Shown one piece after another: positions 1,131 through 23,879 of a stretch of 64,000 nt of DNA. Positions within the stretch are counted from its first letter, which is position 1. Each line of letters starts with the position of its first letter. Under the pieces are notes generated by a model. That model saw nothing but the letters and a program-made list of their open reading frames with translations. It searched no databases and was not told the origin of the DNA. The DNA is from Psammoneis japonica (lineage: Eukaryota). The DNA lies in NCBI GenBank assembly GCA_008632985.1, contig QPGO01000028.1, positions 1 through 64,000 of the forward strand, read 5' to 3'. The position numbers and the translations under genes are program-made.

Positions 1131-1253
1131 GTCCGGTGCCAAAGTCACAGCCCAGAATGAAAAACTGGGAAAACTCCATTCGATGGCTTTGCTTCCAATC
1201 GTAGTCTATTTAGTTTTTGTCGCCCGTACATTTCATCAGGGATAGGGCTGTAT

Positions 1254-2420
1254 TTGCCATCCAGCAATGAAATGTGCGAATCGACAGACTGCCAATCATC
1301 CAGCTCGCCGACAGAACCTGAGTTTCCCTTTACAATGTCGGCATGTCTTATTGTCAAGGAAGATAATCGTATATTACCGGAATGGTTAGCATATCATTAT
1401 GAGGTATTGCCTCTTCGTCACTTGATTATTGCGGACGATCCGTACAGCAAAATTTCTCCAGAACCCATTTTGGAAAAGTTCCGGTCGTTACCAAACATGA
1501 AGATTGAATTGTGGGGCGACCAAGATTATCTAGAAAAGGGACAGTATTACAATCCAACTGCAGACAGAAAAGAACGACTCCATCTTTTTCTGCAACGTCA
1601 AACGGCATTTATGGAAGCCTGCCTCGACTCGTTGAAGAGGCAAAACAGAACATGGACAGTGCTCATTGATCCCGATGAGTATTGGGTCTTTAACGACTAC
1701 GACAAGCATGAGTCCGCAGAGCCCTGCTGCTTTCAAGATATAAACTATACGGAACGGGCTGAATGTCTTATGAAATTCGATGAAGACATTCACAATGGAT
1801 TGCATCCACGAACAAGACTACCGAAAATTGGAGAGGCAACTGTGGCTGACTACCTGGCCAGCGAGCTGAACCGGACTGACAGATATTGGCGTTTCGATAA
1901 ACCATGCATGATTGTACCCCGAGTGTTGTTTGGGAACAATGTAAGCTCGCCCAATGAAACATATTCCCAAGTCCCCGACGGGTTTGATCCCGAACACTTT
2001 TACACGCTCCGATACCGCCATCATCAGGCGCACCAAAACCGCTATCCCGGGAAACCCTTGATGGACGCTTCGCAATACGATGCAAGTAAAATACTATCAC
2101 CTCATCATCTCAATGAGGATCTTTGCGTCCATGGAGCATTCGTTCCCTATGCAGAAGCCATGTTTCGCGTCCATCACTACATTGGCCCGAGGGAAGAATG
2201 TATTGGTAGAAAATCGGACGAGCAATACAAAGCAAGAGAAGCCGAGATTGAAAAGATTGTTGCAACAAATGACAAGATTAGGGGATGGCTGGAATCGTTT
2301 GTTCAGAGGGTCGGCAAGGAAAAGGCACTAGAACTAACCGAGGGACTGAGAACCCGAGCGATTGAAGACATGGCAAATTTGAACAATGAGGCGAGACGAA
2401 AACTTCGATACAGGTTTTGA
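1254..2420 (+). CDS. Putative glycosyltransferase (GT2/GT92-like, diatom-expanded family)
   Basis: SACLIVKEDNRILPEWLAYHY and WTVLIDPDEY (DxD-type) motifs, plus RVHHY. The true start is probably ~1157, with the N-terminal TM segment frameshifted. Confidence 0.7.
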   Translation: MPSSNEMCESTDCQSSSSPTEPEFPFTMSACLIVKEDNRILPEWLAYHYEVLPLRHLIIADDPYSKISPEPILEKFRSLPNMKIELWGDQDYLEKGQYYNPTADRKERLHLFLQRQTAFMEACLDSLKRQNRTWTVLIDPDEYWVFNDYDKHESAEPCCFQDINYTERAECLMKFDEDIHNGLHPRTRLPKIGEATVADYLASELNRTDRYWRFDKPCMIVPRVLFGNNVSSPNETYSQVPDGFDPEHFYTLRYRHHQAHQNRYPGKPLMDASQYDASKILSPHHLNEDLCVHGAFVPYAEAMFRVHHYIGPREECIGRKSDEQYKAREAEIEKIVATNDKIRGWLESFVQRVGKEKALELTEGLRTRAIEDMANLNNEARRKLRYRF

Positions 2421-2772
2421 TTGATAGAGGTCCATCCTAAAAGTGTCGCTTGTTTCACTTTACCGGCGAGTAGAAACAAAGATTCCGACATTGACAACAT
2501 CTTAAGCTACCGAAAGAAAAGCGTTCCGGAGAGAAATCAAAACGAAAAATGTCCTAATGTGGTTCACCCAAAGAATGCAACGATGGACGGACTTGCTCTC
2601 TGCCTCCGCCCAATGAATTACAGTCTGTGATATCTCGCAGATTTCAATCTTTCTTCTTCTGCATAAATTATTCCGGGGCGGGGACGCGTCGCCAGGGACA
2701 GTTAAATTCAAACAGGAGTATTCTATGCGGATGTACAACATTGTGTGAACTTTTACAGATTATGCACTATTT

Positions 2773-5519: not shown

Positions 5520-5802
5520 GGTTGGGAACCAACTAAGTTGTTGGCGCAAGAATAGAGGGTTTTCGATCGTAAGGAAGTGGTCAGCCCAAGATAAGGAAGA
5601 AGATAAGGAAAAATCTTTGTACTAAGATGGAATCTCCTGCGGAAGTGCATGACCTTGTATGCGGTGCATAACTGTTTTTGATCCTCGTGTTTGAAGAGTG
5701 TACATAAAGAAACCAATTATTGTTGTCAGTGCATGCGTGCTGGAGTGTTCGCACCAGCAGCCGCCGCACTCGCCCCTGCAGGGATGGTGAGGGAGTCCAG
5801 CG

Positions 5803-6220
5803 ACAAAGTTTGCACCCCCCAGGAACGCAAGGGAAACAAGTGCGGTAGTGTGTTTCGTATGGTCAGCAGAACCACAGCGATAAAGTTTGCAGTCCCCCAT
5901 GAACCTCGACTGCAGGAAAGCAATCGCGCGGAGGAACCACCGCGAAAAAGTTTGTAGCCCCCAAGGAACCCCCACGAGAAAGTTTGTAGCCCCCCAGGAA
6001 CGCAATCGCGAGAAGTTTCTGTAGCGTCAGGAATAACAATGGAAAACTTTGTAACCCACAGGAACCCCCGCGCTAAATTTGTATCCCCGGGGAACCCCGG
6101 CGAGAAAGTTTGTAGCCCCCCAGGAACGCAACAGCGAGAAGTACAGCGTCACCGGAATCACAATGGAGAACTTTGTATCCCCCCAGGAACCCCGCGAGAA
6201 TATCCCGAATGGGACTCGTG
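5803..6220. repeat. Irregular array of ~25-30 bp direct repeats (AAAGTTTGTAGCCCCCCAGGAAC[G/C]C), possibly transposon subterminal repeats
   Basis: About 8 degenerate copies near 5805, 5882, 5947, 5978, 6044, 6076, 6105 and 6169. Confidence 0.8.
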
Positions 6221-6719
6221 CTAGACCACAGAGGTGAATGTTGCATATGGGATTCAACGGATGTGACGTAAGTATATAAGCATGATATGAAAAAAGTATT
6301 ATAAAATTAAATAACGAGGATCTGAAAAGCTAATATAAAAACGAGAATGACCCTCACCGAATTTTCGACGCGAAAAACGACGACGCCATGGCGATAAAAG
6401 CAGCTTGCGTTGATCCCACACTACTCTATGCTACAAAACCAAGGCATGAATCGGCGCATATTATTACGAAGATATTATATTTGCACAATGTATACGATCG
6501 GTGGTAACCTTGGTACTCAAATCGAAGGCGTACTCTTGACACCAAAAATGACGCCCTGTAGAAACCCATACAAATTCTACGCAAAAATGAAATCTCCAAT
6601 CATCGGCGCCTGCACAAACGGCGACCGGCAACGCTACACAAACAACCTCAGCAATCAACCAACATGTCACGAGGTTTGTTAGACAATGAATGAGACGACC
6701 GTATCAATAAAAGTGCCAT

Positions 6720-9620
6720 ACCACACAAACGGCGACGACAGTGAGCGGGTCATTGTCGATGCAGCGGATTTGTGCGACTCCGATGGCCACGGATTGAGAA
6801 TTTCACGCTGTGGGGTAAAAGCGAAGACACACGGGCAGACGAAAAATGCATGACCTTCGGTCATGCATATGACGTCAGCTGTCCCGCAGCGCGTGCATTT
6901 GGCGCGCGACCATCCAGCGACATGCCATCACAACATGGAACGAACACCACTCGTCGTGACAGCCATTGTCGACTATTGACAATGCGGGTAGCCAGAGAAA
7001 GCTCAAGGAACTCCTTGTTGACAAGTGCAACTGTTCAATGTCTCTTCTCCCAACTTGAGCTTGTTGTGGACTCGATTGGAGACAACATGCTGGAAGAGAG
7101 CATGGGAGCATCTTGTCTCTTTGTCCTCAAGAATGTGGTGCCTAACGGCGTCTACCTCACTCGTTGAATGTAGTGTGTTGAAGTGTGTTGGGCAGCTACA
7201 GGCTCTAGACAAGTCGTCGACCGCTGGCAGCAGATGAAAGGATCATGCCAGTTGTTGCCACGCAGCAAATCACGATGATTGGTTTTTCCTTGTCTGGTTT
7301 CCTTGTCTTTCCTCATCTGAGGAAATTCAGGGTCAAACAAGGAATTCCCTACGATCGAAAACCCCACGCAAGAAGCTTCAGCAGCACTCGTGTGTTTTCT
7401 GTTTTCTCACAAGTGTCATTCTCAACCCTGAACAGTGGCCAGTCACGCATGTTGCGAAACCGGGCTGCCTTGCTGTTGGAGTTGGCATTTCATCCCATGA
7501 CGTCATTTGCTGCACCGCATTTCAAGATGTTTAATTCTGAATGACAACATTGCAATTTTGCCCACGGTCTCCCTGATGGGGGATGCACCCTTCGTCGCGT
7601 CATCTTCCAGAACCACGTCACGTCTCGCCAAAAAGAGTGAGAGATTCCAAAGAGATTCTCCGTCGGGTGACGATTGGTGCATTGCAACTCCTCTTTCTTT
7701 TCACGCACACGACAATGGAAGTTTTAGAAGCCTGGCAGAGAAGAGCAGGTTGAAACATCATTCAGGCAAACAAACATCCCCGATGGCCACAAACAAGAAC
7801 ACACGTTGTCCCAAGAAAACAGACCTTTTGCTTTCCGAAAAAACAAGAAACACACCATGCTGACAGCTGGCACACCAGCTCAAAGTTTTTGCCAGACCTC
7901 AAAAACACTTGCAAGTTTTTCTGAAAAAGGGGTTTCCACCAAGACTGGCCAAAACAAAGTGGAAAGATGGTGACAAGGCTGTTTCAAGCAATGCCATCCT
8001 CAATTTCTTCTGTGAAAACACACAAGGCTCGTGGGCTCTGCCTCTTTTGGCTCTTTCTGTTTGTTGCTGAGAGCAGCCCCCTGGCACAAGGGAAAAAAGT
8101 GGTGCAGCACTCCCATGTTTTTCTCTGTTGCTGAGGAGCTGGTGTTGAAGTTGCTGTTGTTGTTTGGAACAAGCAAATGCAAAGCATGATCTTGCAAAAA
8201 ATCCCTCTGCTTTTTGGTGCGCCGGAAAAACAAAACAGCAGCCAGCCATTTTTGATGTTGAAGAAACACGAAAATGTGGCACACACACACACAGCTTGGC
8301 AAGCAACAAATGGGTTGCCAAAGCACTGCTGTGAAATTGATAAGGCTGGTTTGCTGCTGGAAAAATGGAAATCATGCAAACAAGAAGAGCTGCGCAGGCT
8401 CTCCTGCTCATTTGTGATTTGGGTGGCATCAAAAAGTTGCCCTGCATTTCTCCGATCCTGGGTGATGTGTGATGTTTGCAAACATTTGATCATGGTGTTG
8501 TTCTTGCACACTGTGCCGTGCATGCATTGGGGGACAGTCAATGCATGTGGTGCGCCATTTGCAGATGCTCTGGCGCCCTCTTTTGGAAATGCCAAAGTGG
8601 GTTTGCCCATGCCCTCTGGGCTGGGTGCTTCCCAGACACTGGAGCACAGTGGCGCATGCTGCACAATCTTGTCATGTTGTCCAGTGAACATGCATCATAA
8701 AAAATTGCCTTGATCAGCCTCAACAACAGTGCTGTGGCTGTGCTTTCATCCAGCCAAAGTGGGTGCTGCCCAGCACACACTCAAATGATGGATGCCATCC
8801 ATCTCTGCCCTCAAACTTGAAAGGCAGAAGTGCCAAGCAACACAAGCTGGCCTTCACTGTTGGTGGTGCCGTTGGTTTGCTCCTCACAGCACCACCTTCT
8901 GTTTCTGTTGCTCAGTGTGATTTTGTGATGAAGCCAGCACCAACCATTGTGTTGGGCTCTCTGAAGCTGCTTCAAGAGTCGATGGCAGCCATTGCAGTGC
9001 CCAAAACTCACAACCAAGATGTCCACAAGAGCCCTGGCTGCTGGGTTGTTTCTGGTGCACTGCATGGGAAGCTCAATGAAGCTGGTGGGTTTGGCACAGA
9101 AAGCACTTGCTTGAGAAATGCACAAAAAACATCTCAAAACACACAATGATGGGGACTCACACTGAAGACAAGGCTGCTGCTTGGAAATGTTGTCACGTCT
9201 GGGTTGGTTGATGGCTTGGGAAGGAAGCCACCTGGCAACCAGTTTTGCAGCCACCTCTCAATTGCTTCTTGGAGTGTCATCGGAAGATGGCAAATGCACG
9301 ACTCAACATGTGCAGGCTCTCCAGTGCAATGTGACATGGAATGCAACAGCTCAAACACACAGTTCAAACATGCCCCAATCTTCAAAGTAAAATCCTGATT
9401 CTGGCAACATCTCTTCAGATGCACACAATGTGCTCCACTGCAATCCCAAAAGTGTGGCACAACAAACGCACTGCACAGGTCCATTTTTTGGAACAAAGCA
9501 ACCAAACCATGCATGACAAGCAGCTGGTGGCTTTCAGACTGCACTGCAAACACGAGTCAGTGGTTGTTCCAAATGTGCCACGTGCACCATGGGCATGGAC
9601 AGATCTTAGAAGCACATTCA
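6720..9620. other. TA/CG-depleted hypermutated domain D2
   Basis: About 6 TA counted by eye in 7210-9600. CG persists in 6720-7700 and is scarce in 7850-9600. Many overlapping Cys/His-rich, Tyr-poor ORFs. Confidence 0.85.
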
Positions 9621-9762
9621 AAAACGAGACCGGCCGGCCCCAAAAATTTGCAACTTTGCCTCTACGGGAATCAATGGGATTTTCAGGCGAAGACGAACAG
9701 CGAAAAATAAGCTCAGGGTCTCTCATAACTCTTGAAAGAGAACAGAAAGGTTTTTCTTCACG

Positions 9763-10170
9763 ATGATGGACAGTGACGGCAACATTGAAGCCACCGTCGA
9801 CGTTGGAGGCAGCGATTTGCTATCTTCGATGCGAACAATCTGCTTCAAGTTTCACCACTTTGAGAATCTCCCTCAACAACGTGGAGAGGGAGTCACTTCT
9901 CCAGAATTTGCATTGCGCTCTTCTCAAGGAAGTTGCAGTCCAATTCTTTGTTGCCAACAGTGACAGGGCATTGGAACTAGAGTCTTTCAAGTCGATGGAC
10001 TCGCCAGAGGTACTTCGCGAGCTGACTGAAGCACTCGCGAAACCTAAAGCCTATACCCAGGATGAAGAGAACATTGACAGCATGAGCGTCGGTATCTTGT
10101 GCGAACAGCTCAGTGAGGCGGGGTTCGACGTTGACGGTTCCCGCGAAATGCTTGTTTAGCGTCTCAAGGA
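9763..10170 (+). pseudogene. Internally deleted MATH-BTB-SAP gene remnant
   Basis: The N-terminal MATH start (EATVDVGG...FKFHHFENLPQQRGEGVTSP) is joined at ~9912 to the BTB-end/SAP region (CALLKEVA...GFDVDGSREML). Both parts are homologous to 36385-37593. Confidence 0.8.
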
Positions 10171-10359
10171 GCTTCGTGAAGATATCTCTGAATAGGGCTC
10201 GCTCGCGCCTCGAAGCACTGACTATCCAAGTCTCCGAGAGCATTTCAAGAGGTGAACAGCTCCGTACTATTGGCATTGAGTACGAGCAGTTCTGTATGAG
10301 CCACTCATTTTAGCATACTATGCTGAACGGAATTAGTAACGACATCTAAACCACTTACT

Positions 10360-13161
10360 CTAGCTCTCAATAGCGCCTTCGCGACTAAACACCCGTCCAC
10401 CCTTGAGAAAGCCGGCAAGAGTGTTGGGTGGCGGTTTCAACATATCCGGCATGAACTTGACTTGAAGAGAATTAAACGCAAACAAGGCCTGCCCCACGTT
10501 CTTTTCGCAGACCGGAAGACGCGTTCCATACACACGCATCAGGGTTGCATTCTCAAAGACCCCGTCTTGATTGGCATTTGCGTCCTTTTGCAACAAGAAG
10601 CGACTCACAAACTGCGACTGCTTGTAGGTGACTTGCATGGCGGTACGGTCCTTGCCGCTCTTGCAAAAGACAACGCCCCCGCCACCCAAGCGCTGTGCCA
10701 CAAAGGCAGCCTCGTCGACAATACCGTGAACCATTTTCCCAGCCGACGACATGACCTTGGCATGAAGCGACGTCATGAGGGGATGAATCGTTTGTTGCTG
10801 CTGCTGCTGAGTAGAAGAGATATCCAACAAATTGCCGGACGGCGCCACGGGTGAAATCATGTGCGCATAATTGTTCATTTTGCGACACGCTTCCATATTC
10901 AATTGAATCAAGACATCATTGTCGGGAGTGCCGACATCGTCGTCTTCATCATCAATAATTCCACCACCCGTTGCTTCTTGCCCATCATCTCGTGAATTCA
11001 AATTCTGCTTGGCGTGTGCACCCCACTGACGAATATCGACTCCCACTTGATACAAGAGCGGATACAAGCGCACCGACGCGCCGTTGCGTAGTGGTTCTGG
11101 AATACGCTGCTCCTAATACAAGTGATCCATTCCGATTTCCAATCGATATTGCGTCGAGGAACCCTTGCCGGTATACGAGATTTGTACCCATTGCAAATAG
11201 GGTGAGTGCGGAACCGCTACTCTCGTTCCCGCCGTGCTGGGTTCATTGCCCGACACCAAGACAATTTCCACCATGCTTAGCATGGAAATACCCACACTCG
11301 CGTCTTCAATCATGCCCAATTCCTTCCCGGCCGCACTCAATAGACCCTCAAAGGCTACAAGATAACCGTGTCGTTTCCACAAATCCGGCCATCCCTGTTG
11401 CAACTTTGTCACATCCGACAGACTTGTCAAGTACGAACTCACGGCAATGCCGAGTGCTTGCGAAAAGCAATTGGCACGACGAACCGCACACGTCCAAGTC
11501 AAGGATGCCAAATGTTGCGTAATTTCAAACACTCTCCAACGCTTGGCACTAATATCGGCATGACGTGCCGACACGTGTGTCGTGCCTGGAACCGATGATA
11601 AATACTGTCCAACCGCGGCAATGAGAATCGATTGAGCCTGTTCCAAGGCTCTTGCCAATTCCAATCGTTTCGCTTCAAGTCGTCGTAATCCACCCCGAAT
11701 GGTTCCCACCGCCGTTGTGGCATCTCCTAGATAATTTCCAAAATTCCGTGCATGATCCGCCGGTGCACCGCACGTGACATTGGAAAACATGGCATTCGAA
11801 TGTGGTGCCGCCGATCCTTGTTGCAATACCTGCAGAGATAACGATTGTACGTGTACATTAAAACCAATGCCGGCCAAAGTCTCCTCCATGCGACTCGAAC
11901 TCGGACGAAAGGGTTTGGGTGACATATCTTGCCAACTTTGGACAGACGCGTCGTGCAATTTACCCACCAATCCATTTTGGTACAGATCCAATCGCTTTTG
12001 CAACAATTGCAGGTCTTTGTTTCGTTCTTGTTGAATGTGTGCTTGTAAGTGAGCATGTGTGATAAAATTACCCATGGTTTGCAATTGCGAGATACGCAAT
12101 TGTTTGGCTGCATCAAGGCTTTGTGGTACTGGGGCAGATGGACACGACATGGTATCATAATCCAATACGGGCAAGGTACCCGTCTCTTCCAAGAGTGTAT
12201 CCAATCCCACCAAGGATACCAATCCACCCCGTGCCGAAACAATCGTAGGTGCTGCAGCATTATCATTATCATCCATGCCAATGACCACTTTGAGTTGCAA
12301 ATCACCCATTTTTTGATTGGCTGCGTTATAGACGGGAATGGAAATAACTTGTTGTTGTTGCTGTGAAATACACGACTCGAGACTCAACAAGGCTTGCCAC
12401 GTTTCTTCCAATGGTTGCATGGAACTGTTGTTTGGTCGTCCTGCTCCCGCAGTATTATTGTAGGCAATACGCAATTGAAACCGCAACGTTCCCAATAACA
12501 CGTCATGAGACGAATTACGCAACGATGGCAATACTCCACTCGAGTCCTTTTTCATAATTTTGGCATGAAACGGAACCGATGAGGATTCAACAAATTCTCC
12601 AGATAGAGCTTGTGTATGGACCGCCAGTTTGGTTCCGGGCGGAGCGAGTTCAACTTCAAAAATGGAATCGGGACGTTGCCACGAAAGTGATGTCGTGACA
12701 GTCAAGGTATTGGTTGCTTCTTGTTGTTGCAATACTAGATACCCCATTCCAACATGAACATGTGCATTGCGTCCCTCCATGGAATCGTGACGATTCGCCA
12801 ATAAAGCAAGGGATACACTCTTGGCGTGTTCCAAAGAAATCTGGGAAGCATCTTTTAACAATCCCGCATAGGCGGTTGCCAGAGGCAACACGACGGAACT
12901 TTCAATACACCGTTCCGTGGCCACGAGCCAACTACTCGAAGAAGTAGTAGTAGTAGTATTGACATAACCATACGATGCATCCAGAGGCAAATTGTAAATG
13001 CCATTGTATCCCGATGGATTCGTCAAACTCCATCCCAATCCACACAAGACGGGATGTTTTAAATCCGTCACGATACAACAATGTAATTGTCCACCCACCA
13101 CCACGTGGGATTGTAATTCTACAAAATCAAAACCAAACGTTCCACCCGATTGTGTTAGAGT
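10360..13161 (-). pseudogene. 5'-truncated inverted copy of the inositol polyphosphate 4-phosphatase-like gene
   Basis: Near-identical to 28470-31278 and contains CKSGKDRT. It lacks the first ~210 codons and has an in-frame TAG at 11113-11115 where the other copy has TAT. Confidence 0.85.
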
Positions 13162-13162
13162 A

Positions 13163-13945
13163 TGATCCAAAAAATGGGTTCATCAAGGATGGTGTTCTCA
13201 AAGCACAGGTTCAAATTGACATCCCCACACAGCTCATTTCATGATGTCCCTCCAACACCATCAAAAATGACCTCATTGGTCATTTCAACAACAAGGACTT
13301 GGAGAATTTGTGAGCTTTTATGTGCACCGGTTTCCATGCTTTCTAAAATTGCAGCAGAGTTTTGATCCAGCAAGGACAAAAAGCTTGAAATTGCCAGTTT
13401 TGACCTGACAATTTTTGGATCATTTCTCTGGACTTTGTGTGGTGCAAAGGGCAAAAGTTGAGTGTCAAAACCATCATCGTGGGGCTGCTCAAAGCTGGAG
13501 TTGATCACAGAAGAGAGCCTCACAGAATCTGCCATTCCAGCCAACAAGGCATCCAACGTGTTTTTTCTCTTGCAGGAGGAGTTGTCCTCTCCCCAGGGAG
13601 GTTGCCACATGTGTGCGGGCATTTTTGTTGCCACAACAACCAGCAGGCTGCAAGGAAACCCCATGCACATCATTCCTTGGAGTCACCTCAGTCACCAGAC
13701 AAAATGAGGGCTGCTGCTCTGTGAAGAGAAAGTTTGGTTGGGGGGGGGCTCAATGTGGGCAGCACTCATGAAACATGCTGGTCAACAAGGACCTCAAGGT
13801 GCAGCAGCAGGCACCAACCAGCTCCACAACCATGATGTCACAGCTCTTGTCACAGACACACTGGCTGCAAAGGCCAAACAAAGGATTGTTTGCACCAGTG
13901 CATGTCAGATCTGCCTGGACCGGGTTGGACTTGGGTCAGCAAGTG
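13163..13945 (+). pseudogene. Hypermutated MATH-BTB-SAP relic 1 with 3' flank
   Basis: DPKNGFIKDGVL...PSNTIKNDLIG, KIAAEF...IFGSFL and SLESP...KMRAAAL align to 22228-23435. 13915-13944 matches 23552-23581. Confidence 0.8.
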
Positions 13946-14094
13946 TCGTTGTTTGCAACAACAAGAACAATGAACCAGCGCTGCACATGTGTCCACAGAG
14001 ATGGTGCAGTGGACAGACACATGGCATTGTGCTGCAATGGCATGTGCCTCAAGGCTGCTGCAGGCAGCAAACAGTCAAAAATCTGTCTCTGTGA

Positions 14095-14835
14095 TCATGG
14101 CAACAGGCAGTGATGGCAACATGGAAGTCACAGTCAACATTGGAGGCAGTGATGTGCTGTCTTTGAAGTGAACAATCTGCTTCAAGTTTCACCACTTTGA
14201 AAATCTCCCTCATGCAAGTGGGAAGGGAGTCACTTCTCCAACATTTCTTTGTCATGGATGTTGCTGGGCAGTTGAACTCTTCCCATGTGGAGACCAGCCA
14301 ATTGTCCCGTGTTGTGTGTTGCTGGCTTTGTGGTGTGTTGGCACCCAGGTGAATTGATTGATGCAGAAATCACATTGCAAGCAGGTGGGTGCATGGAAAG
14401 CACTTTTCATTCTTTTGCAGCATCAAGCAAAGTTTGTGGGTTGAGGGATTTACAAAACATGACAATGTGACTCATCCAGACCATGAGTGCCTTGCAAGTG
14501 GTGTGTTTGTCATGAATTGTTTCATTCAGATTTGTCTTCCAAAGCAAAAGATTTGGCATCCTGGTGGCACGTTCAAAGACAACATGGCAGCTCTGCATGG
14601 ATCTGAGAAATTCAAAGACGTCACCTTTTCTGTTGACGGCAAAACAATTCAGGCTCACCAGGCCCTCCTGGCAGCTCGTGCCATGCAGTTCACTGAAATC
14701 TTTGATTGTGGCTTGTTTGCACCTTGAAGCACTGACCGTCCAAGTTCCCAACAGCATTTTGTGTGGTGAGTTGCTCTGCACTGTGATGGTGTTGAGCGCA
14801 AACAGCTCTGTGCGAACCACTCATTTTGGCTTGTT
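14095..14835 (+). pseudogene. Hypermutated MATH-BTB relic 2 with 3' flank
   Basis: 14105-14240 aligns to 9770-9905. CHGCCW...LFPCGD corresponds to CHGYLW...LYPRGD, and KFKDVTFSVDGKTIQAHQALLAARA is the BTB start. 14710-14830 aligns to 10197-10315. Confidence 0.8.
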
Positions 14836-16530
14836 GTGCGGAAGAACAGGATCATCAGTGCCAGTGAAAGACAGCAAAACTGACAGCACACATGTTTTGG
14901 AGTCATGTCTTCCCAACCATTCTGTCATCCAAGCCATTTTTTGAGTCACCTCTGCGCTGTGATGCCATGGTGTGATTTGACACCATGCACTCTCCAGCAA
15001 AGCAGGATCACAAAGAAAGAAAATGACAATGTGTGACTTGACTCTGACCATTCCATGGTTGCCAAGGCTCTAAAAGCCTCACCAAGGCCAAGTGCATGGT
15101 CCAATTGCAGTTGAAGTGCCCTCCTCCATCAAGCATGTGCTCTGCCTGGATGAGCTCAATGGCAGTGCACTTTGGCAAGATGCTGCACACTGCCTCAACC
15201 ATTGGCTGCACCAACTTTGCCATTGCTCTTGAAACACATGCATCCACTGTGTGGCATTCAATGGACCCACACAAAGGACACTTGTCATCTTTGGGCACCT
15301 TGAGAAGTTCCCAAAGTGCCAAGCATTTGTTGATCCATTACACTCCAAGCTGCCAGATGCTGAAGCACTTGACACCACAAACTGCAAAAAGATGTGCATC
15401 CCCCCCCCTCTCCAGGAAAGCCAGCAACCATGAGCTTCCAGTGGCCACACCCACAACAATGTCTCAGCACCCATTGCTTGGTCACTGACACACAGTCATG
15501 TTTGTCAACAACACCTCCATGAAATTGACCTGTGAGCTGTGGTCTGCATGAGGTGAACCCCAGCCAAGCATGATTTCCCAAAGCAAGAGCAAAGAGTCAA
15601 TGACACACCCAAAAAACATTGAGAAACCTGAGTCCAGCTCCTCCAACAATGGATCCACCACCACACATGACCTGACTGCCAAGGAGAAGATTGTTGCTGC
15701 TGTTTTTTCAGAGAGCCCTGACATGTGCTCAATCATGACCAAATTTCAGTGACTGCTGACTGTGTCATCCATGTCATCATGGGGACTGGGGAGAAATTTG
15801 GTGGTCAAACCAGTTGGATGTGCTGACACAATGTGTCACATGCCCCCCAACATTTGTCTTGATGATGTTTGAAGACAATGCGCCAGCACCAAAAATCCAT
15901 GGCCATGTGCCCAGCCAAGATCTCCCCAAGAGAAGATTTGCGGCTGAGATTTCTGGCTTGAAATGGGGAGCAATGTTGCAAGAGATCATGATGGGTTGTC
16001 AGGAGTGCATGCTCCAACACCTTGCTCCAGAGTCTGATGCTTGCAGCACTTGGTGCGCCACAATGCTGCTCATGTTTTTGGAGCAAAGTGTGGCCAGAAG
16101 CTGCCGCGCCTTGTGCTGGAAAATCCTTTGATCTGCTTGTTCACAGCACCCAGCAATTTGACATCACTGGCTTGCATCCTTTTGTTGACTGCCATTCCAA
16201 GCTCTTTGGGCAGCCTGGCTGGTCGAGGAGGGCGAGCCTCTTTCTGCGATGGTTGCCATGCCTCCTCTCACACAAAAAGCTGTGTGCCTCTCATTTTGTG
16301 GTGTGTTGTTCTGTTGCAAAGATTTTGCAGTGACCTTCAGCCCAGTTGTTCATCCAGATCACACTCGAGTCATCTCCAGTGTTTCCCAATGGCTTCCATG
16401 GACAAGGGGGCCGTGACGTTTTCGCACAAATGACACGCGACTGGCCATTTGCGACGCGCTCTCAGCACGCGCCAGCGCATCGCGCACATGCGCGAGTTGA
16501 GTTGACAGCACAGCAGGGCGATCCAGGAAA

Positions 16531-16820
16531 CTTCGAAGACTTCGAAAGATTCCACATTCCATGACATTTCTGTAAATTGTTCTACGTGCAGAGCTCGCAG
16601 GTTGTTGGCACTCAACAAATGAGGGGCAACAGATGAAAGTTCAAACAAATGTGTTGTGTGTTCGAAGCTTTTGAATGTTGTTCGAAGTGTTCGAATTTTT
16701 GTCGAAAACATGTTGCCCTCCAAAGATTTTGATTCATGTCACCTGTTGTTCGAACTTTTCACATTGCCCTTTTGGTCACTTCGAACTTGTTCGAACAAGT
16801 TCGAAGTGTTCGAACAAGTT
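16531..16820. repeat. Left subterminal TTCGAA palindrome array of the Harbinger
   Basis: Many TTCGAA copies, several at 9-10 bp spacing (16780-16815). Confidence 0.85.
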
Positions 16821-17237
16821 GAATGGCAGATCTCGCACTGCCTGCACGCACAACCACTGCACAATGGAATCGCGCTTTTGCTTGCATTGCCCAAAGACAC
16901 AAAGGAAGAAAAAGCATCCACGACACGATGTCCAACCTCCATTTTAATTTTTTCGAACGAGACGACAAGTGATGCCAATTGCTGTCGAGGTGCTGCATCT
17001 TCGGTCGCGTCATAAGTCACCAATCAGATTGCCGAAGGCCATCTGCCTCAAGATGCTGCATGCCGGCAGTGCTGTGCACGTCATCATTTATGTCGCGTTG
17101 CGGCGACGTGGCAAAACGAGAATTCCGGATGTTCGGTGAGTGCAAAAACCCGCACAAAAGCACGGCCACAACAAAATCACGCACAAAAGCAAAGCACCAG
17201 ACTCTTCATTCTTTGTTTGATCACATCGATGAGTGGC

Positions 17238-17448
17238 ATGCGAAAAGACAGTGACGACTGGAATCCAGTCAAAGAGCAGATTGCAAGCGGCCTGTTTGAC
17301 CTTTCGAAACACATCCCACACCGCCAAATTCTCGATTGCAACGTGGAGCAAGGAAATTGGGAAAAAGACAAGCACAAGCTTCCGGCATTTTCAACAAGTT
17401 GCCGAAACCTTGTCAATTCATTACGAACTGAGAGACAGCTTGAATCGG
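17238..17448 (+). CDS. Probable first exon of the Harbinger accessory gene, carrying TA-type mutations
   Basis: MRKDSDDWNPVKEQIASGLFDL...KHKLPAFSTSCRNLVNSLR is followed by a GTAAGT donor at 17449. His/Cys sit where Tyr would be plausible. Confidence 0.45.
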
Positions 17449-18364
17449 GTAAGTGCGTTTTGTCTTCATCCCCGGCTTCTTCGGATTTTCTGGACTCACG
17501 ACCGTTGCGTCTCGCATTGTTGCTCGTGCTCGCCCGCCGCGGATGCCGCACTGTGGAGGTAGACGGAAAGAATACAACCCTGGGTACAACTGCGTAGGGT
17601 CTAGTGCTTCTTCTACAGGGTCACCAGGAAAGCACAGACACCGACTTCCGCTACATCAACCTGCAGCACCCTCCAAGACGCGCAGCTGCGAAGACAACCA
17701 AAAAAGAAAACGATCGCGACAATGGCCTCCCTTGCGTCGCTGACATCTACATCTGTTTTTGCCGTATTTTCCCGTTTCTTTTCGCAGCATTCGGAGCTTT
17801 TATACAAGCAATGTGATGGGCTAGTGGTGCTGGCGTTGAGTTCAATCCGTCGAGGCGGATTTGTCGCTGAAGGTGCAGTGCAGAAATTGTGAGAATGCAG
17901 CATCAACATGACGGATTTTTGTGATGTGCTGTTGTATCTTTGGTGTTGTTTCTCACTTCTTGTCATCATTTTGACGTATGTGCCATAAGGTGTCCACGGG
18001 GCTTGGGTTTTTATGGTGCTGACTTTCTCTTCGGAGCTTATCGTTGAATAATCAAAATTGAGCTGCCACTGGAATTTATGGTAAAGAGTTGGCGGCGGTG
18101 ATGTCTCAACATCCCTTGGGCCGATTTTCGCGATTCTTGTTTCATTGTTGATGGAAATTGTACAAGGAATCCAAGAGGCTTGGTTTTGTTGTGCAAAATT
18201 CCATTCTGTGCAGATGGATTTATTGGATGCCGTGCGCACAGAAATGATGCTTCAATTGGAAGGGGCGCTCCAGCGATGTTGTGGATTGAACAAGGAAGAA
18301 TGAAGCCCTAGACACGCACTGCATGTAACAAGAATGTTAAGTGTGAATGTCAAACATGGCACGG

Positions 18365-18680
18365 GGTTTTTTACGTCAGTTGATCGTGTCGGGTTGCCTT
18401 GATTTGACAGAACATTCCACGGCACCAACCGGTTTGACATGTAGCTGGAAATCGGCTTCCTCCAGTGTTCCAACCAATTTGACCTTGCTTGCATGGGCAA
18501 GCTGTTGTCGCCTGGTTCGGGTGTTCCATACGCCTTTAGACCCATCCACCACGACATCGTTGGGGGTTGTTTGAATGGCCTCTGGTTGGTGAAGTCTTGT
18601 TCACATTGACAAGTCACCCCGCCAAGAAATGACGTGAGTGCTATCAAGGTTGGCTTGTAATACTTTTTAGACGGCATGGT
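18365..18680 (-). mobile_element. Fragment resembling the N-terminus of stramenopile Crypton-type tyrosine-recombinase proteins, nested in the Harbinger
   Basis: WMGLKAYGTPEP...QARSNWLEHWRKPISSYMSNRLVPWNVLSNQGNPTRSTDV resembles, from memory, the AYG..P...RS..L...KKAIS.FM......W.....GNPTRS..VN block of oomycete/diatom CryptonS-like proteins. No catalytic domain is seen. Confidence 0.5.
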
Positions 18681-18867
18681 CTCGGTTGTATTGTTGCATA
18701 AATCTATCAAAAACGCGACGTACCATGCAACAACCCGGTTGTTTCGATACGGGAAAAATTCCCGTGCTTCCTCCACAAGAACACGGAAGATACGGTCGCT
18801 GAAGTGGGGTAACGGTCAGTACAATGTGTAGAATTCAACGGAGAAATACTACGGAATACAACATGGG

Positions 18868-20375
18868 TTGTATTCCCGGGATAATGTACCGGTAGATACT
18901 GACGCCGCGCGGAGAGACGGCGTGGAGGAAATGAAGACACCAGCGAAAACAACGAGGTCAGGAGAGGAGGTCATCACGAATGACGAATCAACGGTGAAGA
19001 ACCCCGTCCACATCATACCTTGGACGGACTCCAATCTTGATAAGAGAATTCTTGTTATCGCCACTCTTCCTTCTGGAGTATTCGGTAACGATGTTGAGGC
19101 ATACATTGACCAGCAACGGACGCTGGTTATCGAGCTCCGAGAACCAAGTTTGTTCAACGATCCGAAGTTGCTCCTTGACGACATTGATCCGAATACCGGG
19201 CTTCCCTTTTGGAACTCAGGTCATGCAGTTATTTCTTCTTTCAAGGAATGTGTCAAGAAAAAGAAAAGGTCGAATGGATCCAATACAGTCCCAAAAAACA
19301 CTGAACGTATCGAGCTTGATGAACCGGTAGAAAATCAGTTCTGCGATTTTGACGTCCCTTACGCCTTTCAATTGAAGACGTATCCAGAGCAACGATTGAT
19401 GGTTGTAATTGCTAGTCTCAGGTAAGTCACAGCTTGTCTACTGCATCAAAATTTTGGCATGGTGCTGAACATTTTTACTTTTTGCTCTATCAATTTTTTT
19501 ACTGGTGCTGCTCGTAGGGTCGTACGAGACAACTACCAACGAACCGCGGTTGTCGAGCGCTTGCACACGCAGCAAGGGACAACGATAGTTCCGTGGGGGT
19601 CTCCCAACATGACACAGAATGTGATAGCTGCCATGATGCAAAATATGGCGATTCAGCAACCCCAACAAGGAATGGGATTTGGAGCATTTGGGGGGCAGCC
19701 GATGCATTATGGAGGTCAGCAGCCTCAGGTAAACCCATGTCAATTCGGTTTTGCTGCTTTTCCTGGTGTCCCTCCAAATCAAGCGGCTTTTGCTGGTGCC
19801 AACGTAGTGCCACCGGCTTATGGTGGTGGTGCCAACGTGGCGCCGCCAAACCCTGCTCAGCCGCCTTTCATGCCCCCCCCCCTGCCCATGTTCAACCACC
19901 GCCCCCGCAGCAGCAGCAGCAGCAGCAGCCAGCAATGCCTCCCAACCAGCAGGCCAATGCAGCCGGCCCCAATCAGAATCCGCCGCCGCCGCCACAGCAG
20001 CAGCCTCCCAATCAGAATCCGCCGCCGCCACAGCAGCAGCCTCCCAATCAGAATCCGCCGCCACCACAGCATGTTGGAGGCAATAATGTTGTGCCGCCGC
20101 AGCAGCAGCAGCAGCCGGCTTTTGGTGGGGGCAACATTTTCATGCCGCCGCCGCAGCCTCCCCAGCAACAGCAGCAGCCTCCGCCTCCTGCTGCTCAAGG
20201 TCGGGCTCAAGCGGCCCGTCCGAATCAGAATGCTGTACCGCCGCAGCAACAGCAGCAGCCCCCGCCTCCTGGTCCTCATTTCGTCGATGGTGCTCAAGGT
20301 CGGGCTCAGCGTCAACGAGTTGATCCTAACGCTACTACTGTCCGCTCTGGCAGGCGTCGCCCGAGAGGGAATTAG
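18868..20375 (+). CDS. Harbinger accessory ORF (3' part) with long Pro/Gln-rich C-terminus
   Basis: ORF 18868-19421, intron 19422-19517 (GTAAGT...CGTAG) joins it in frame to VVRDNYQRT. A frameshift in the C run at ~19873-19882 leads into PPQQQPPNQN repeats that end at 20375. Confidence 0.6.
19968..20070 (+). repeat. Coding tandem repeat, 33-36 bp x3 (CCCAATCAGAATCCGCCGCCGCCACAGCAGCAGCCT)
   Basis: Three consecutive units are visible and encode PNQNPPPPQQQP. Confidence 0.9.
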
Positions 20376-20603
20376 TGGATTGGTGTAGCAGACGGGGGAA
20401 GATATTAGTCACTAGGGAATAATATTGTATAGTGGTAGAAATGCTTGTAGTATTGTCTTATTGACTAAATTAAAAGTAAACTATGGTTCTCGAGAAGTCA
20501 TTAGTGGATTTGTCGCGTGGACAGGAGAAGATACAGTTGCAATACTGAATTTTGGAGCGGTAGAAATGCCACTGTAATAGTCATCTTATAGTTTAAAACA
20601 GAA

Positions 20604-21558
20604 TTAAACTACGGTGCGATATTCCTCCACAGAATATAATGGGTGCTCATTTTCAAGGTCAAGTTGTGTGATGACTGCAACGGCGCTGAAGACATCTTGG
20701 TGCTTTTCGATCCGATGACGAAAAACACGATTCAAAACACCCCACTGCTTAAAGCGTCTGTTCGCGGTTTCGTGTCTCGATCGTACACTGTACTGAATGC
20801 TATTGTCCTCCTGAGGCGTAACAATGTATTTGGGCTCCCCTCTATAGCCCTTATCTGCTTCGACCATCTCACCTTCATCCAGTTCATAAATGAGATTTTG
20901 TTTGAAGATTAAAATGTCGGTGAATCGTCCACAGGGAAATGGGCCGTTTATCCACACAATGTCCCCAGTCATGATATTGATTGCAATCTCATAACGAACG
21001 GCAGGGCCGTTAAACTTGAATGACCACCAGCCGCTCCAAAAGGGTTTCCAATCATAGATACGGTAATCTGTGCAATCAACCGTGACCTTACAGATGTTTC
21101 CGACATCGCCTCGGAAACGATTCGCCCAAAGAATCTGTGTAAGGCAAATCCCACAAGAGGAAGAATGAGAATTTATGAGAAAAAAAAGCGAATCACACAA
21201 GGTCTTTGACGCTTACAACTGAGTATTGCTGTTCGCTAATTGCAACGACAAATAACCAGCACCACTTGCGATACGTCTTTTCATCTACTGCTGCTTCATT
21301 CGTGCTTGCGAGAGTGCAAAGCACGGACTCTGCACAGTAGAGCTTCAAAAACAGAAGGGCCCACAGCAAGTGAACCAAGCGAGCACCAACCGGCATTGAA
21401 TGGAAAGGATCAATCATGATCCAGAGTCGAACGCAATTATACGGACTGGTGCCGAAGTGAGCATGAAATCTTATCTCATCAACAGCGGAACGCACGACAA
21501 GACTTCTTTTCATGAGGCCTTTCCCAATGTCCAAAAACGAGTCTGGTGAGACCGTCAT
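20604..21558 (-). CDS. PIF/Harbinger DDE transposase (DDE_Tnp_4-like), 2 exons, 290 aa
   Basis: Exon 1 is 21558-21217, a phase-0 intron spans 21216-21135 (GTAAGC...ACAG), and exon 2 is 21134-20604. Motifs VTVDCTD, WINGPFPCG..D, EADKGYRG and RSRHETANRRFKQW are present and the frame is intact. Confidence 0.9.
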
Positions 21559-21828
21559 AATGCAACTTTCGTACTGAATCTCTAATACAGTATTTGAGTG
21601 CTGAGAGGAATGGAGCGTTACTTGTCGCTTCGATTGTACGTACCGTATCTCATCATCTCATTGATAGAAGAGAGCACAAAACAACAACGTGAGATATCAT
21701 ACCGTATCGCGCGTGTACTAGTCTACCAGCAGTACAGTACACTACATCATTCGGCTACGGATGTCATCGTGACATCATCATTCGTCTCCCCTGCCGTTAC
21801 TGTACTATTTTTATTTAAGAAAAAAAAC

Positions 21829-22040
21829 TTCGAAAGTGTTCGAAGTACTTCGAAGTGTTCGAAGTATTCGAACACTTCGAACAACTTCGAACACTTCGAA
21901 CTTTCTTTGGGGCAGTATAAAGGGCAATAGAGAAAGAAATTTTACAATGTTCGAAGCTTTTGTCCATCCTACACGAGGTCCACGTAGAGATATATAAATA
22001 GGAATTAGGAATCTCTTAAATATTTTTCGAAACTTCGAAG
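21829..22040. repeat. Right subterminal TTCGAA palindrome array of the Harbinger
   Basis: 8 TTCGAA copies at 9-10 bp period in 21829-21900, plus copies near 21950 and 22026-22039. Confidence 0.9.
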
Positions 22041-22227
22041 TTTCCTGGATCGCCCAGCTCACAATCCAAAGCGTTCTTTTTTTCAAACTGAAACCGCCAT
22101 CAAAACTCAAAACACAACGGCAAAACTGGAAACAAAGCCAACGGCGGACCAAAAAGAAAAGATCAGCAACGGAAAAAGCAAAAGAATAAGAGGCTGCAAA
22201 GCAAAGAAGAGACTTCAATAAGAAAGC

Positions 22228-23435
22228 ATGTTGCATCGCATGGCGCAAGAGATGATTCTCAGCTGGCTGTTGCCTTTCTTGCTCGGGATGGCTCTGACCA
22301 TCAAAGCTCTGACAAGGAACGAAAGCAAGAGGAGAGCCAGCTCTTGTTTTACATTTCGAGACTTTGCAAATCGTCCGCACGATCGTGATGAGATGGAATG
22401 TTCTTTCCCCGTTTTATTCCGTGACAATCTTTGGCGGTTGATTCTCTACCCCGGGGGCAGCAAAACCTCTGATGCAGAGACGGCTCATGTCTCGATTTAT
22501 CTGAAACGCGCGCACGCCGACCATGACCCAGTCAATGTGCAAATCACATTTCGAGTGGGTGGAGGTCGTCTTGTCAGAGAAATCAGTCAGACGATCGGTG
22601 TTGAAACTTGTTGGGGATTCGCGGATTTTGCCACTCGTGCTTACATTCTTGATCCCGCGAACGGATGCATCCAGAACGACGCCCTTGACATAGAGGTTGA
22701 CATTCAGATCAACTCGCCCACACAGCGCATTTGTTGGTTTCCCTCTAACACCATTAAGAAAGACCTCATTGGTCTACGAAATAACGAGGCCTTGGCGGAC
22801 GTAACATTTTTGGTCGGCTTGAAATCATTTCAAGCTCACAAACAAATTCTCGCTGCTCGGGCGCCCGGGCTTTTCGAAATTGCAGCAGAGTTTGAATCCG
22901 GTGCAGACGACAGGCTTAAGATTGTCAATGTCGATCCATCAATCTTTGGGTCTTTCCTGGGCTTCTTATACTCAGACGAGCTCCCAGAGGACATGAACAT
23001 CGAAACGGCCATGGGATTGCTCGAAGTGGCTGACAAGTACAACTGCTCTAACCTGAAGCTCGTCGTCGAGTCAGCGCTCGCAGAATCTCCATTCCAGTTG
23101 ATGAGGTAGTGAACTTTCTTGTTTTTGCAGACAGCAAGAACTGTCCTCTCCTCAAGGAGGTTGCCATGGACCTTTTCGTTGCCAACAACCAGGCCGCAAT
23201 GAAATCCGATGCGTTTCAGTCGTTGGAGTCACCTGAATTGATCCGGGAGTTAATGGCAGCGGTTACAGGCCCACGGACCTATGCCGAAGACGTCCCAGAA
23301 AAGATGAGGGTCGCCACTCTGCGAAGAAAGCTTGACGAGGCGGGGCTCGACGTGGACGGCACTCGTGAAACACTAATTAGGCGTCTCAAGGCACATGCAA
23401 CAACTAGCTCCACCACCGTGGCGCCGCAGCTCTAG
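22228..23435 (+). CDS. MATH-BTB/POZ-SAP domain protein (one frameshift at ~23090)
   Basis: WRLILYPGG (MATH), ADVTFLVG...AHKQILAARAP (BTB) and MRVATLRRKLDEAGLDVDGTRETLIRRL (SAP-like). Confidence 0.85.
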
Positions 23436-23879
23436 CCAGAGATATACTAGTTACTAGGGCTATGATGGGGGCTGTTTGTACCAATATCCGTGCGCTTTTG
23501 TTTTTCGTTGCAAGCTTTTGTATGCTTCAACGCAAGATATGGCGCAGTCATCTGGACCGGGTTGGACTCGGGTCAGTAAGTTCACAACAACGAACCGGCA
23601 CTTGCGTCGGCATTAGTAGAAGACTGCAAATTGATAGTGCATTTATAAGACATCTCTTTCCAATCATTTTCCTCATCTCTCCTCTAGAATTCCTGATACT
23701 GAAGGAATATTCCACGCATACGCACTCTCTAACTCTCTAGCTAGAGTAGACCACAACAGATGAAAATAACAATACGTAAATTCTTTAAAACCTAATATCG
23801 AGAGAGCTGGATGTGCACAATACTAAACTGCAATCCGCAAAAGAAAGCACTACACAAAGACTAGACGACACGACCAACT

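Follow-up and report, generated by a model that had tools for sequence, protein, structure and literature searches.

The window analyzed here, 64,000 nucleotides from Psammoneis japonica (contig QPGO01000028.1 of assembly GCA_008632985.1, positions 1 to 64,000, forward strand), carries several genes and gene remnants of the MATH-BTB family. Paralog C (36385–37611, minus strand) is one 408-amino acid ORF with MATH, BTB, and BACK_BPM_SPOP domains and served as our outgroup. Paralog A (22222–23590, plus strand), our proxy for the ancestral state, and paralog B (31311–33260, minus strand) are of normal composition and are intact in composition only; relative to paralog C, they have frame breaks near 23088 and near 32418, respectively, which could be real or could be assembly indels. 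A further paralog piece, D (9767–10327, plus strand), is also of normal composition. Among these lie two relics, both on the plus strand. Relic R1 (13164–13944), recognized by tblastn and alignments, corresponds to the 3′ two-thirds of a MATH-BTB gene, from the BTB domain to the C terminus and on into the 3′ flank, with frame changes and deletions of ∼35 and ∼60 alignment columns. Relic R2 (14108–14843), recognized by tblastn, BLAST, and Pfam, consists of pieces of the MATH N-terminal region, the MATH-end/BTB-start junction (with a BTB remnant at 9.8e-05 in Pfam), and the 3′ end; its partner is piece D, with 85% identity over 139 bp. Both relics differ from the paralogs by transversions and indels too. 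To their left lies an inverted 3.1 kb duplicate (10039–13170, minus strand; partner at 28461–31605) carrying an inositol-4-phosphatase-like gene, and to their right a multi-copy DNA transposon-like element (16512–22059) with 27-nt inverted ends that are 96% complementary and a DDE_Tnp_4 ORF at 20607–21212. This element has TTCGAA-rich subterminal repeats and a normal CG content.

Segmentation of the window with a two-state dinucleotide HMM returned five sharply bounded blocks poor in both TA and CG, together 12.1 of the 64 kb: block 1 (1–733, truncated by the window edge; 1 TA and 9 CG), block 2 (7733–9600; 3 TA and 21 CG), block 3 (13163–16403, 3242 bp; 5 TA, 26 CG, 374 TG, and 391 CA), which contains both relics, block 4 (43510–45199; 4 TA and 20 CG), whose content is unrecognizable, and block 5 (47160–51722; 12 TA and 39 CG), which contains a tandem pair (50005–50160 and 50158–50345). 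TA density was 2.1/kb in the blocks versus 37/kb elsewhere in the window, and CG density was ∼9.5/kb versus 57/kb, so that TA depletion (∼5% of the normal density remaining) is stronger than CG depletion (∼17%). Per kilobase, the blocks have lost 35 TA and 47 CG and have gained 40 CA and 46 TG, meaning that the gain in TG and CA approximately equals the loss. GC content was 0.48 in the blocks and 0.48 elsewhere, with individual blocks at 0.47 to 0.50, the same range as outside. Within 13790–14835 (1046 bp), we counted 1 TA, 11 CG, 131 TG, and 127 CA; 2000 mononucleotide shuffles gave means of 70, 60, 71, and 60, respectively, and never reached the observed values.

Normal DNA subjected to simulated conversion gave matching levels of TA, CG, TG, and CA. 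Compared with such converted DNA, the blocks are lower in AT and GA/TC and higher in GC and CC, deviations which the two conversions do not explain. TG and CA are finely intermixed along the blocks, with no strong strand clustering (runs test, z −0.6 to −1.6), and the TG:CA ratio is over-dispersed at 100 to 300 bp (4, 27, and 6 of 500 permutations reached the observed values). The few surviving TA sites lie mostly in xTAA or TTAx contexts (20 of 25), and surviving CG sites favor G/C flanks.

The preliminary description of this DNA, based on five hand-aligned examples, had claimed that the relics lost essentially every ancestral TA, with products on both strands. All five examples were recovered in BLAST alignments: 13915–13944 against 23552–23581 and against the reverse complement of 31822–31793, identical at 28 of 30 positions and differing by one CG>TG and one TA>CA; a second within the HSP 13695–13897/23295–23483; two more within 14695–14843 aligned to 10181–10327 and to the reverse complement of 31459–31311; and the last within 14108–14246/9771–9909. 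We then tabulated substitutions by dinucleotide context, counting each relic position once and excluding a weak HSP to 36964–37099; ∼1.1 of the 3.2 kb of block 3 can be aligned to any partner. Against the partners at 22.7–23.6k and 9.77–10.33k (875 dinucleotide steps), TA was kept at 0 of 30 sites (12 CA, 10 TG, 8 other; Fisher p = 1e-12) and CG at 1 of 49 (17 CA, 16 TG, 15 other; Fisher p = 5e-18), compared with 41 to 80% for the other dinucleotides (486 of 796 in total), CA being the best kept (55 of 69). Against the reverse complement of 31.3–32.6k (663 steps), TA was kept at 0 of 29 sites and CG at 1 of 27, and across both partner sets the remaining dinucleotides were kept at 35 to 80%. 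The claim therefore stands in formal alignment: loss is far more frequent at TA than at other dinucleotides, and the near-equal CA and TG products indicate that both strands were hit.

The polarity claimed earlier, with TA as the ancestral state, also held once the outgroup was included. Transversion distances gave the topology ((A,B),relic),C. Where A, B, and C are identical, the relic keeps CG at 0 of 8 sites and TA at 0 of 3; where A and B are identical, it keeps TA at 0 of 14 and CG at 1 of 22, the polarized CG products including 8 CA and 6 TG among the 22. As controls, the A and B lineages keep TA at 3 of 4 and 3 of 3 sites and CG at 9 of 11 and 9 of 14. These comparisons indicate that the dinucleotide loss took place on the relic lineage.

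The changes depended on neighboring bases. A>G occurred at 10 of 24 sites after T, compared with 9 of 63 after A, 10 of 63 after G, and 4 of 58 after C, and TA was lost best from TAC and TAT and worst from TAA. C>T occurred at 15 of 39 sites before G and, before other bases, at between 2 of 57 (before A, the lowest) and 9 of 56; by 5′ base, it reached 12 of 62 after T and 3 of 55 after C. TA products showed a local strand bias, with 11 CA to 3 TG in 13163–13944 versus 1 CA to 7 TG in 14108–14843 (Fisher p = 0.006; the strand-bias tests were selected post hoc with the data already seen), while CG products showed none. Products other than a single transition account for 8 of the 30 lost TA and 15 of the 48 lost CG, about a quarter to a third, and the share of transitions among the losses (55 of 78) is only moderately above the control (65 of 116; p = 0.012).

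DNA neighboring the blocks is unaffected. The 13.5 kb of non-ORF DNA outside them has 43.7 TA/kb and 53.2 CG/kb. The 3.1 kb duplicate is 96% identical to its partner (116 differences in 3115 sites), and its control spectrum is symmetric for differences between TA and TG/CA (9 vs 11); its composition is normal up to the edge of block 3, with TA as near as 2 bp. The breakpoint of this duplicate forms the left edge of block 3, and the right edge lies where the transposon insertion ends. Since the non-ORF DNA, the duplicate, and the transposon are all spared, the pattern reflects neither a genome-wide bias nor repeat-induced point mutation (RIP). Inside block 5, the copies of the tandem pair differ by four TG↔CA double differences, making up 8 of 17 core differences, which indicates that the two copies were converted independently, after duplication in place.

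Outside block 3, the blocks are defined by composition, together with the block 5 tandem pair. By sensitive BLAST within the window, blocks 1, 2, and 4 had no partner and block 5 matched only through its internal tandem pair; recoding to purine/pyrimidine before BLAST gave only short, chance-level matches for these blocks. Homology between blocks 2 and 3 is limited to the D/R2 piece, and block 2 also holds a weak remnant of a MATH-BTB C terminus at 8907–9143 (tblastn E = 4e-4). A Pfam search with all 94 ORFs of the blocks that run from stop to stop over 70 amino acids or more returned one match above its curated cut-off, the BTB remnant, and three further, sub-threshold matches that were taken as chance. 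At some block ends, the TA-poor zone extends 240 to 1000 bp past the CG-poor zone. We first took this for spill-over of the process acting on TA; two of these overhangs (7207–7711 and 16412–17421) are multi-copy repeat sequence and may simply have the repeat element's own composition.

Contigs from a public sequencing run (X1) match the blocks at ∼99% identity, with 7 to 9 differing letters per 835 to 1088 bp, and the blocks have single-copy depth in this run (k-mer depth 50–70); its platform is unrecorded, and its sample may be the one used for the assembly. A second run (X2), which resembles spliced cDNA, gave no cover in the depleted bins of 1–20000, an observation that says nothing on expression. 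Two of 80 metagenome loci, L047 and L054, which are orthologous (90.7%) and belong to a different diatom-like organism, contain a zone depleted in CG and reduced in TA. In a comparison of the two, differences were most frequent at CG (55.6%) and TA (37.8%), and 11 TG↔CA double differences occurred. In all, 13 of the 80 loci have CG-depleted zones, and 10 of these 13, stramenopile or diatom loci, keep TA (rho 0.71–1.51). In our search of the open-access literature, we found no description of TA and CG being erased together in blocks, in a diatom or in any other genome.

Several conclusions follow directly from the observations. The direction of change is established, the loss of TA and CG is near complete, TG and CA products are about equal, and GC content is unchanged. 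The change is confined to blocks, whose edges are sharp to the base pair and coincide with younger insertions, no duplication is needed, conversion being independent of it, and conversion postdates a local tandem duplication. The near-total rewriting of TA and CG into TG and CA points to a context-specific DNA mutation process, which for TA would be new. We consider it probable that the blocks are old, single-copy, noncoding remnants, including broken MATH-BTB copies, that decayed in place on both strands under a block-confined mutation regime removing CG and TA by transitions.

A different possibility is that a duplication-triggered enzymatic burst of hypermutation, like fungal RIP and perhaps involving the diatom enzyme DNMT4 if it is related to RID, hit fresh MATH-BTB duplicates. 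The relics do belong to a clustered gene family, the block edges are sharp, and PMC9998398 describes DNMT4 as perhaps sister to RID. Conversion is also near complete despite low divergence elsewhere: background divergence of the relics at other sites is generally high (10–29%), but 9 of 9 YpR sites were lost in 14108–14246 at 9.9% and 2 of 3 in 13915–13944 at 0 of 24. Against such a burst, the 96%-identical inverted duplicate and the multi-copy transposon were spared, and only one of the five blocks has a partner elsewhere in the window; CpA, the RIP target, mutated less than any other context, TA was lost where RIP would create it, and strand coherence across whole tracts is absent. We regard this explanation as unlikely. 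Still less likely is that selection rather than biased mutation purged TA and CG, for example in avoidance of a nuclease, a TA-targeting transposon, or a binding protein. The non-transition products and the modest transition excess make the product spectrum alone compatible with selection against the dinucleotides, and the survivors follow context rules, but selection would have had to act site by site at hundreds of dinucleotide positions of dead DNA (broken genes and sequence in which a single ORF passed the Pfam cut-off), which is implausible, while adjacent noncoding DNA retained both dinucleotides and the gain in TG and CA nearly equals the loss.

We were also concerned that, in heavily modified regions, modified bases at CG and TA had been read wrongly as TG or CA, by sequencing or in assembly. 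The assembly apparently differs from the X1 contigs by indels (as many as 17 gaps in a single record), and these and the frame breaks in paralogs A and B would fit a long-read assembly. The X1 contigs nonetheless show the same sequence free of TA and CG (with the reservations about platform and sample given above), the relics differ from the paralogs by transversions and indels as well, and a similar, weaker pattern occurs in two contigs of independent metagenomes, leaving an artefact very improbable. We give equally little weight to the blocks being retro-copies, or otherwise reintegrated copies, of RNA hyper-edited from A to I with U at −1. The A>G changes do occur in a T-A context that resembles what RNA adenosine deaminases prefer, and the relics are partial gene copies. 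Yet neighboring sites were changed on both strands, the CG loss would be left unexplained, the relics carry 3′ flank and sit undispersed in tandem with the paralogs, and we noticed no poly(A) tail or target-site duplication in an unsystematic search; the independent conversion of the block 5 tandem pair, after its duplication in place, further argues for a DNA substrate.

If the blocks did decay in place, the mutation regime would target the two self-complementary pyrimidine–purine dinucleotides, turning CG and TA alike into TG or CA on either strand. The CG half would be the familiar deamination of 5-methylcytosine where silent DNA is methylated, and the TA half a separate A:T>G:C process, specific for TpA and stronger than the CG process; the degree of depletion, the contexts of the survivors, and the strand bias confined to TA products suggest that the two losses are separable. 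A rate excess of ∼10- to 15-fold over a long time would suffice, so neither a burst nor a dedicated enzyme is necessary. For the TA half, the chemistry that we propose, with low confidence, is a base change made on DNA in silent chromatin. By analogy with the T-A context of tRNA adenosine deaminases, enzymatic adenine deamination is our leading candidate, though at well below even chances; an oxidized or otherwise modified thymine at TpA mispairing with G is a weaker one, and error-prone repair synthesis coupled to T:G repair, or something else altogether, would each rank slightly lower.

The CG half resembles the CpG decay of vertebrate genomes and methylated transposons, which is likewise region-confined, turns CG into TG and CA on both strands in similar numbers (16 and 17 of 49 here), and leaves an excess of both; in mammals, too, CG with G/C flanks survives better. 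CpG decay, however, hits only CG and lowers GC content, whereas in the blocks TA loss accompanies CG loss and exceeds it, so that GC content stays level; TA is undepleted in 10 of the 13 other CG-depleted stramenopile or diatom loci. RIP in Neurospora and other fungi shares with the blocks near-saturating, context-specific transitions on both strands, wrecked gene copies, and sharp tracts. It differs in that it changes C:G to T:A at CpA/TpG, thereby raising TpA, where here CpA is the most stable dinucleotide and TpA is destroyed; in that it requires duplication, where here a 96%-identical duplicate is unmutated and a multi-copy transposon keeps its CG; and in that its tracts turn AT-rich. APOBEC-type editing, in which C>T is set by a 5′ T or C, does not fit, since C>T here was most frequent before a 3′ G.

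Adenosine deaminases that prefer a 5′ U or T include ADAR acting on dsRNA, fungal and bacterial enzymes of the tRNA-adenosine-deaminase type acting at U-A, and engineered TadA DNA base editors. A>G at T-A and a strong 5′ preference are common to them and to the blocks, where TAC and TAT were changed best and TAA worst. Natural adenosine deaminase editing nevertheless acts on RNA, while the change here is in nuclear DNA, on both strands, and accompanied by CG loss. Hyper-editing leaves strand-coherent clusters; here TG and CA are finely intermixed, TA products are locally biased, and the TG:CA ratio is over-dispersed at 100 to 300 bp. To our knowledge, no natural DNA adenine deaminase of a TpA type has been reported. 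Polymerase eta makes errors at WA motifs during mismatch-driven patch repair, in phase 2 of antibody somatic hypermutation. This also yields A:T>G:C at TA near deaminated cytosines and could tie TA loss to methylated CG, but A>G was no more frequent after A than after G, TA loss exceeds CG loss, and TA loss is missing at most of the other CG-depleted loci sampled.

We think it possible, though doubtful, that this diatom lineage targets silent chromatin with a system of DNA editing or DNA lesions. Working beside CpG methylation and deamination, it would change A:T to G:C specifically at TpA, either through a natural DNA adenine deaminase or through a modified thymine pairing with G. Such a "reverse RIP" would leave neither of the self-complementary YpR dinucleotides, scramble genes that are dead or unwanted, and remove TAA and TAG stops, all at constant GC content. 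PMC9998398 reports that diatom transposons are CG-methylated and that the function of DNMT4 is unknown. Regional A:T>G:C hypermutation at TpA, if true, would be a new nuclear mutational process, opposite in direction to RIP and distinct from CpG decay, and would suggest that diatoms, whose RID-like DNMT4 has no known function, possess a hitherto unknown DNA modification, deaminase, or repair pathway; a natural enzyme editing A in T-A on DNA, if real, would be of interest to makers of base editors. The blocks also matter for annotation. With TA gone, TGA is the only stop, so long open frames arise in all six frames and risk being miscalled as genes, while the same rewriting conceals pseudogenes from nucleotide searches.

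The partners with normal composition of the two broken relics in depleted block 3 are MATH-BTB genes. One uninterrupted 408-aa ORF carrying MATH, BTB, and BACK domains makes up paralog C (36385-37611, minus strand). Related copies lie at 22222-23590 (A) and, on the minus strand, at 31311-33260 (B), and D (9767-10327) is a partial copy. Relic R1 (13164-13944) extends from BTB through the 3' flank, and R2 (14108-14843) combines pieces of MATH, of the start of BTB, and of the 3' end; frame changes and deletions occur in both relics. A (~23088) and B (~32418) each have one reading-frame change relative to the single-ORF C, representing either real frameshifts or single-base assembly indel errors. 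R1 contains a nine-G run (13744-13752) where the paralogs have GGCGGGG, and contigs assembled from the public sequencing run X1 have as many as 17 gaps per record when aligned with the window.

The preliminary description held that ancestral TA had been lost in these relics to both TG and CA, affecting both strands, and its five hand examples were all recovered in BLAST alignments. We tabulated dinucleotides from all HSPs except a 59%-identical HSP to paralog C, counting relic positions once and keeping two partner sets separate; the scope was ~1.1 kb of alignable relic in a single 64 kb window. TA was kept at 0/30 and 0/29 positions and CG at 1/49 and 1/27, versus 35-80% for the other dinucleotides (Fisher against the pooled rest, 486/796 kept: TA p = 1e-12, CG p = 5e-18). 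In the first partner set, TA gave rise to both CA and TG (CA 12, TG 10, other 8), as did CG (CA 17, TG 16, other 15). Per base, A>G changes occurred at 10/24 sites after T versus 4/58 to 10/63 after other bases, and C>T at 15/39 before G versus 2/57 to 9/56 before other bases; these changes saturate because a single hit destroys the site.

To polarize the changes, we used a tree built from transversion distances, which the process does not affect. Its topology was ((A,B),R1),C, with distances of 0.064 for A-B, 0.126 for R1-A, 0.146 for R1-B, and 0.21-0.30 to C. At sites identical in A, B, and C, the relic kept CG at 0/8 and TA at 0/3; at those identical in A and B, it kept TA at 0/14 and CG at 1/22. 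As a control, this test was applied to the lineages of A and B, where TA was kept at 3/4 and 3/3 sites and CG at 9/11 and 9/14. Because the relic loses TA and CG where the paralogs agree while the A and B lineages keep them, the TG/CA state is derived rather than ancestral, and the preferential loss of TA previously described holds.

The relics sit in a wider pattern. The window has a GC content of 0.48 and long ORFs, its best protein matches are with unnamed sequences (58%) and a diatom (51%), and it resembles diatom nuclear DNA. Segmentation by a two-state model of dinucleotide steps separated normal DNA from five sharp-edged blocks totaling 12.1 kb (1-733, 7733-9600, 13163-16403, 43510-45199, and 47160-51722). 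TA falls to 1.4-2.6 per kb in blocks versus 35-41 outside and CG to 8-12 versus 55-62, while TG and CA each rise from ~75 to ~118; loss closely equals gain (-35 TA and -47 CG versus +40 CA and +46 TG per kb), and GC content is equal in blocks and outside. The interval 13790-14835 (1046 bp) contains 1 TA and 11 CG, and 0/2000 shuffles (means 70 and 60) came near these values. Relative to simulated conversion of normal DNA, the blocks are poorer in AT and GA/TC and richer in GC and CC, which may come from a milder general A:T>G:C pressure.

TGA is the only stop in the blocks, which is why many open frames are found there, including in 9000-17500; 94 frames of at least 70 aa occur on both strands of the 12.1 kb, their translations are enriched in Cys, His, Gln, and Trp, and they could be miscalled as genes by gene callers. 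On one side of each block, TA-depleted zones extend 240-1000 bp past the CG-depleted zones (overhangs 7207-7711, 43489-43791, 51737-51976, and 734-1124). At least two of these are multi-copy repeat sequence, and the overhangs may reflect either a spread of the TA process beyond the blocks or the inherent composition of the repeats. A 12-N run just right of block 1 (1026-1037) is an assembly gap.

A genome-wide neutral bias was rejected, as TA and CG stand at 43.7 and 53.2 per kb in the 13.5 kb of non-ORF sequence that lies outside the blocks. CpG decay, repeat-induced point mutation (RIP), and the blocks are alike in showing context-specific, near-saturating, two-strand transitions that wreck silent DNA. 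RIP was nevertheless rejected, the block pattern failing its defining tests: CpA is the context least prone to change, TA is lost rather than gained, GC content stays the same, an inverted duplicate of 3.1 kb (10039-13170 versus 28461-31605) is normal in composition, and a multi-copy transposon-like element beside block 3 keeps CG. CpG decay accounts for only half of the pattern. A sequencing or assembly artefact is probably not the cause. Contigs from X1, whose platform is not on record and which possibly derives from the same sample as the assembly, span the blocks at the same single-copy depth as the flanks (50-70) and differ at 7-9 letters per 835-1088 bp, and transversions and indels also separate the relic from its paralogs.

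We infer from sequence comparison that TA loss and CG loss are two processes, not one. TA is lost more fully (~5% versus 17% of normal density), 20/25 surviving TA lie in xTAA or TTAx contexts (survival 0.126 for TAA versus 0.023-0.028 for TAT and TAC), and surviving CG prefer G/C flanks (CGC 0.27 versus CGA 0.11). We sampled 0.6 Mb in 80 metagenome loci that encode relatives of the neighboring phosphatase gene; 13 loci had CG-depleted zones, and 10 of these were without TA depletion (rho 0.71-1.51). Since most CG-depleted loci keep TA, CG decay alone is common, with the TA process as an additional, lineage-restricted feature. The exceptions were L005 (TA rho 0.46) and L047 and L054, orthologues (90.7% identical) from another diatom-like organism with joint but weaker depletion than in the window. 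The depleted non-coding zone of this pair (L047, 1251-3438) differs at 201/2142 sites (9.4%) versus 11/981 (1.1%) in the phosphatase coding part next to it; the zone's most variable dinucleotides are CG (55.6%) and TA (37.8%), with 11 TG<->CA double differences, and the TA process may still be active in that organism.

For the TA half, adenine deamination on DNA is one candidate, tRNA-type adenosine deaminases having a T-A context. Another is modified or oxidized thymine at TpA pairing with G; dinoflagellates are known to carry hydroxymethyluracil at TpA, and searches of open-access papers and preprints yielded no diatom report of it. A third candidate, polymerase-eta-like errors during T:G mismatch repair, could link both losses, but AA steps are not raised and TA is retained at other CG-depleted loci. 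The boldest possible reading would be a natural system that edits TpA at the DNA level. For the CG half, 5-methylcytosine deamination in methylated silent DNA would suffice, and diatom transposons are described as CG-methylated in PMC9998398. Searches of open-access papers and preprints turned up no account of TA and CG being erased together.

Block 3 edges match insertions, a duplicate breakpoint (13163-13170) and a transposon end (near 16404-16512). Because these insertions are younger, the blocks look like old DNA interrupted by newer, unconverted DNA. The duplicate copies differ at 116/3115 sites, their TA<->TG/CA differences fall symmetrically in the two directions (9 and 11), and TA is retained to within 2 bp of the block edge. 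The duplicate carries an inositol-3,4-bisphosphate-4-phosphatase-like gene with a CKSGKDRT motif; the 10039-13170 copy lacks its first ~830 bp and ends exactly at block 3. The ~5.5 kb transposon-like element (16512-22059) bounding the other side has 27-nt inverted ends (16512-16538 and 22033-22059), a DDE_Tnp_4 ORF (20607-21212), and an X1 word depth of 300-2500. Its subterminal regions carry TTCGAA palindrome arrays (16404-17421 and 21827-22059), and its terminal 1 kb is CG-rich with nearly no TA.

A tandem pair in block 5 (50005-50160 and 50158-50345) has 17 core differences, eight of which form four TG<->CA double differences, a signature of two copies that each converted from a shared TA or CG once the duplication had occurred, in situ and on either strand. 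TG and CA are mixed at fine scale. In post hoc tests at 100-300 bp, TA products were biased (CA 11/TG 3 in R1, CA 1/TG 7 in R2; p = 0.006), no local strand bias was found among CG products between R1 and R2, and the TG:CA ratio was over-dispersed in blocks (4, 27, and 6 of 500 permutations reached the observed value, versus 53, 31, and 78 in normal non-ORF DNA). Relic background divergence is 10-29%; a long-term rate excess of ~10-15-fold or greater at TA and CG would suffice, so a burst is not required.

Elsewhere in the window, a contig from the public run X2 joins 3137 to 3225, omitting 87 nt (3138-3224) at the 3' end of a GPCR-family-3-like gene (ORF 3220-5403, minus strand); the skipped segment is therefore likely an intron and X2 likely cDNA. 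A tandem array at 5791-6197, with units of ~32 and 126 bp (GGAACCCCC...AAAGTTTGTAGCCCCC), lies within a repeat region of high depth (5337-7337, word depth 400-1000).
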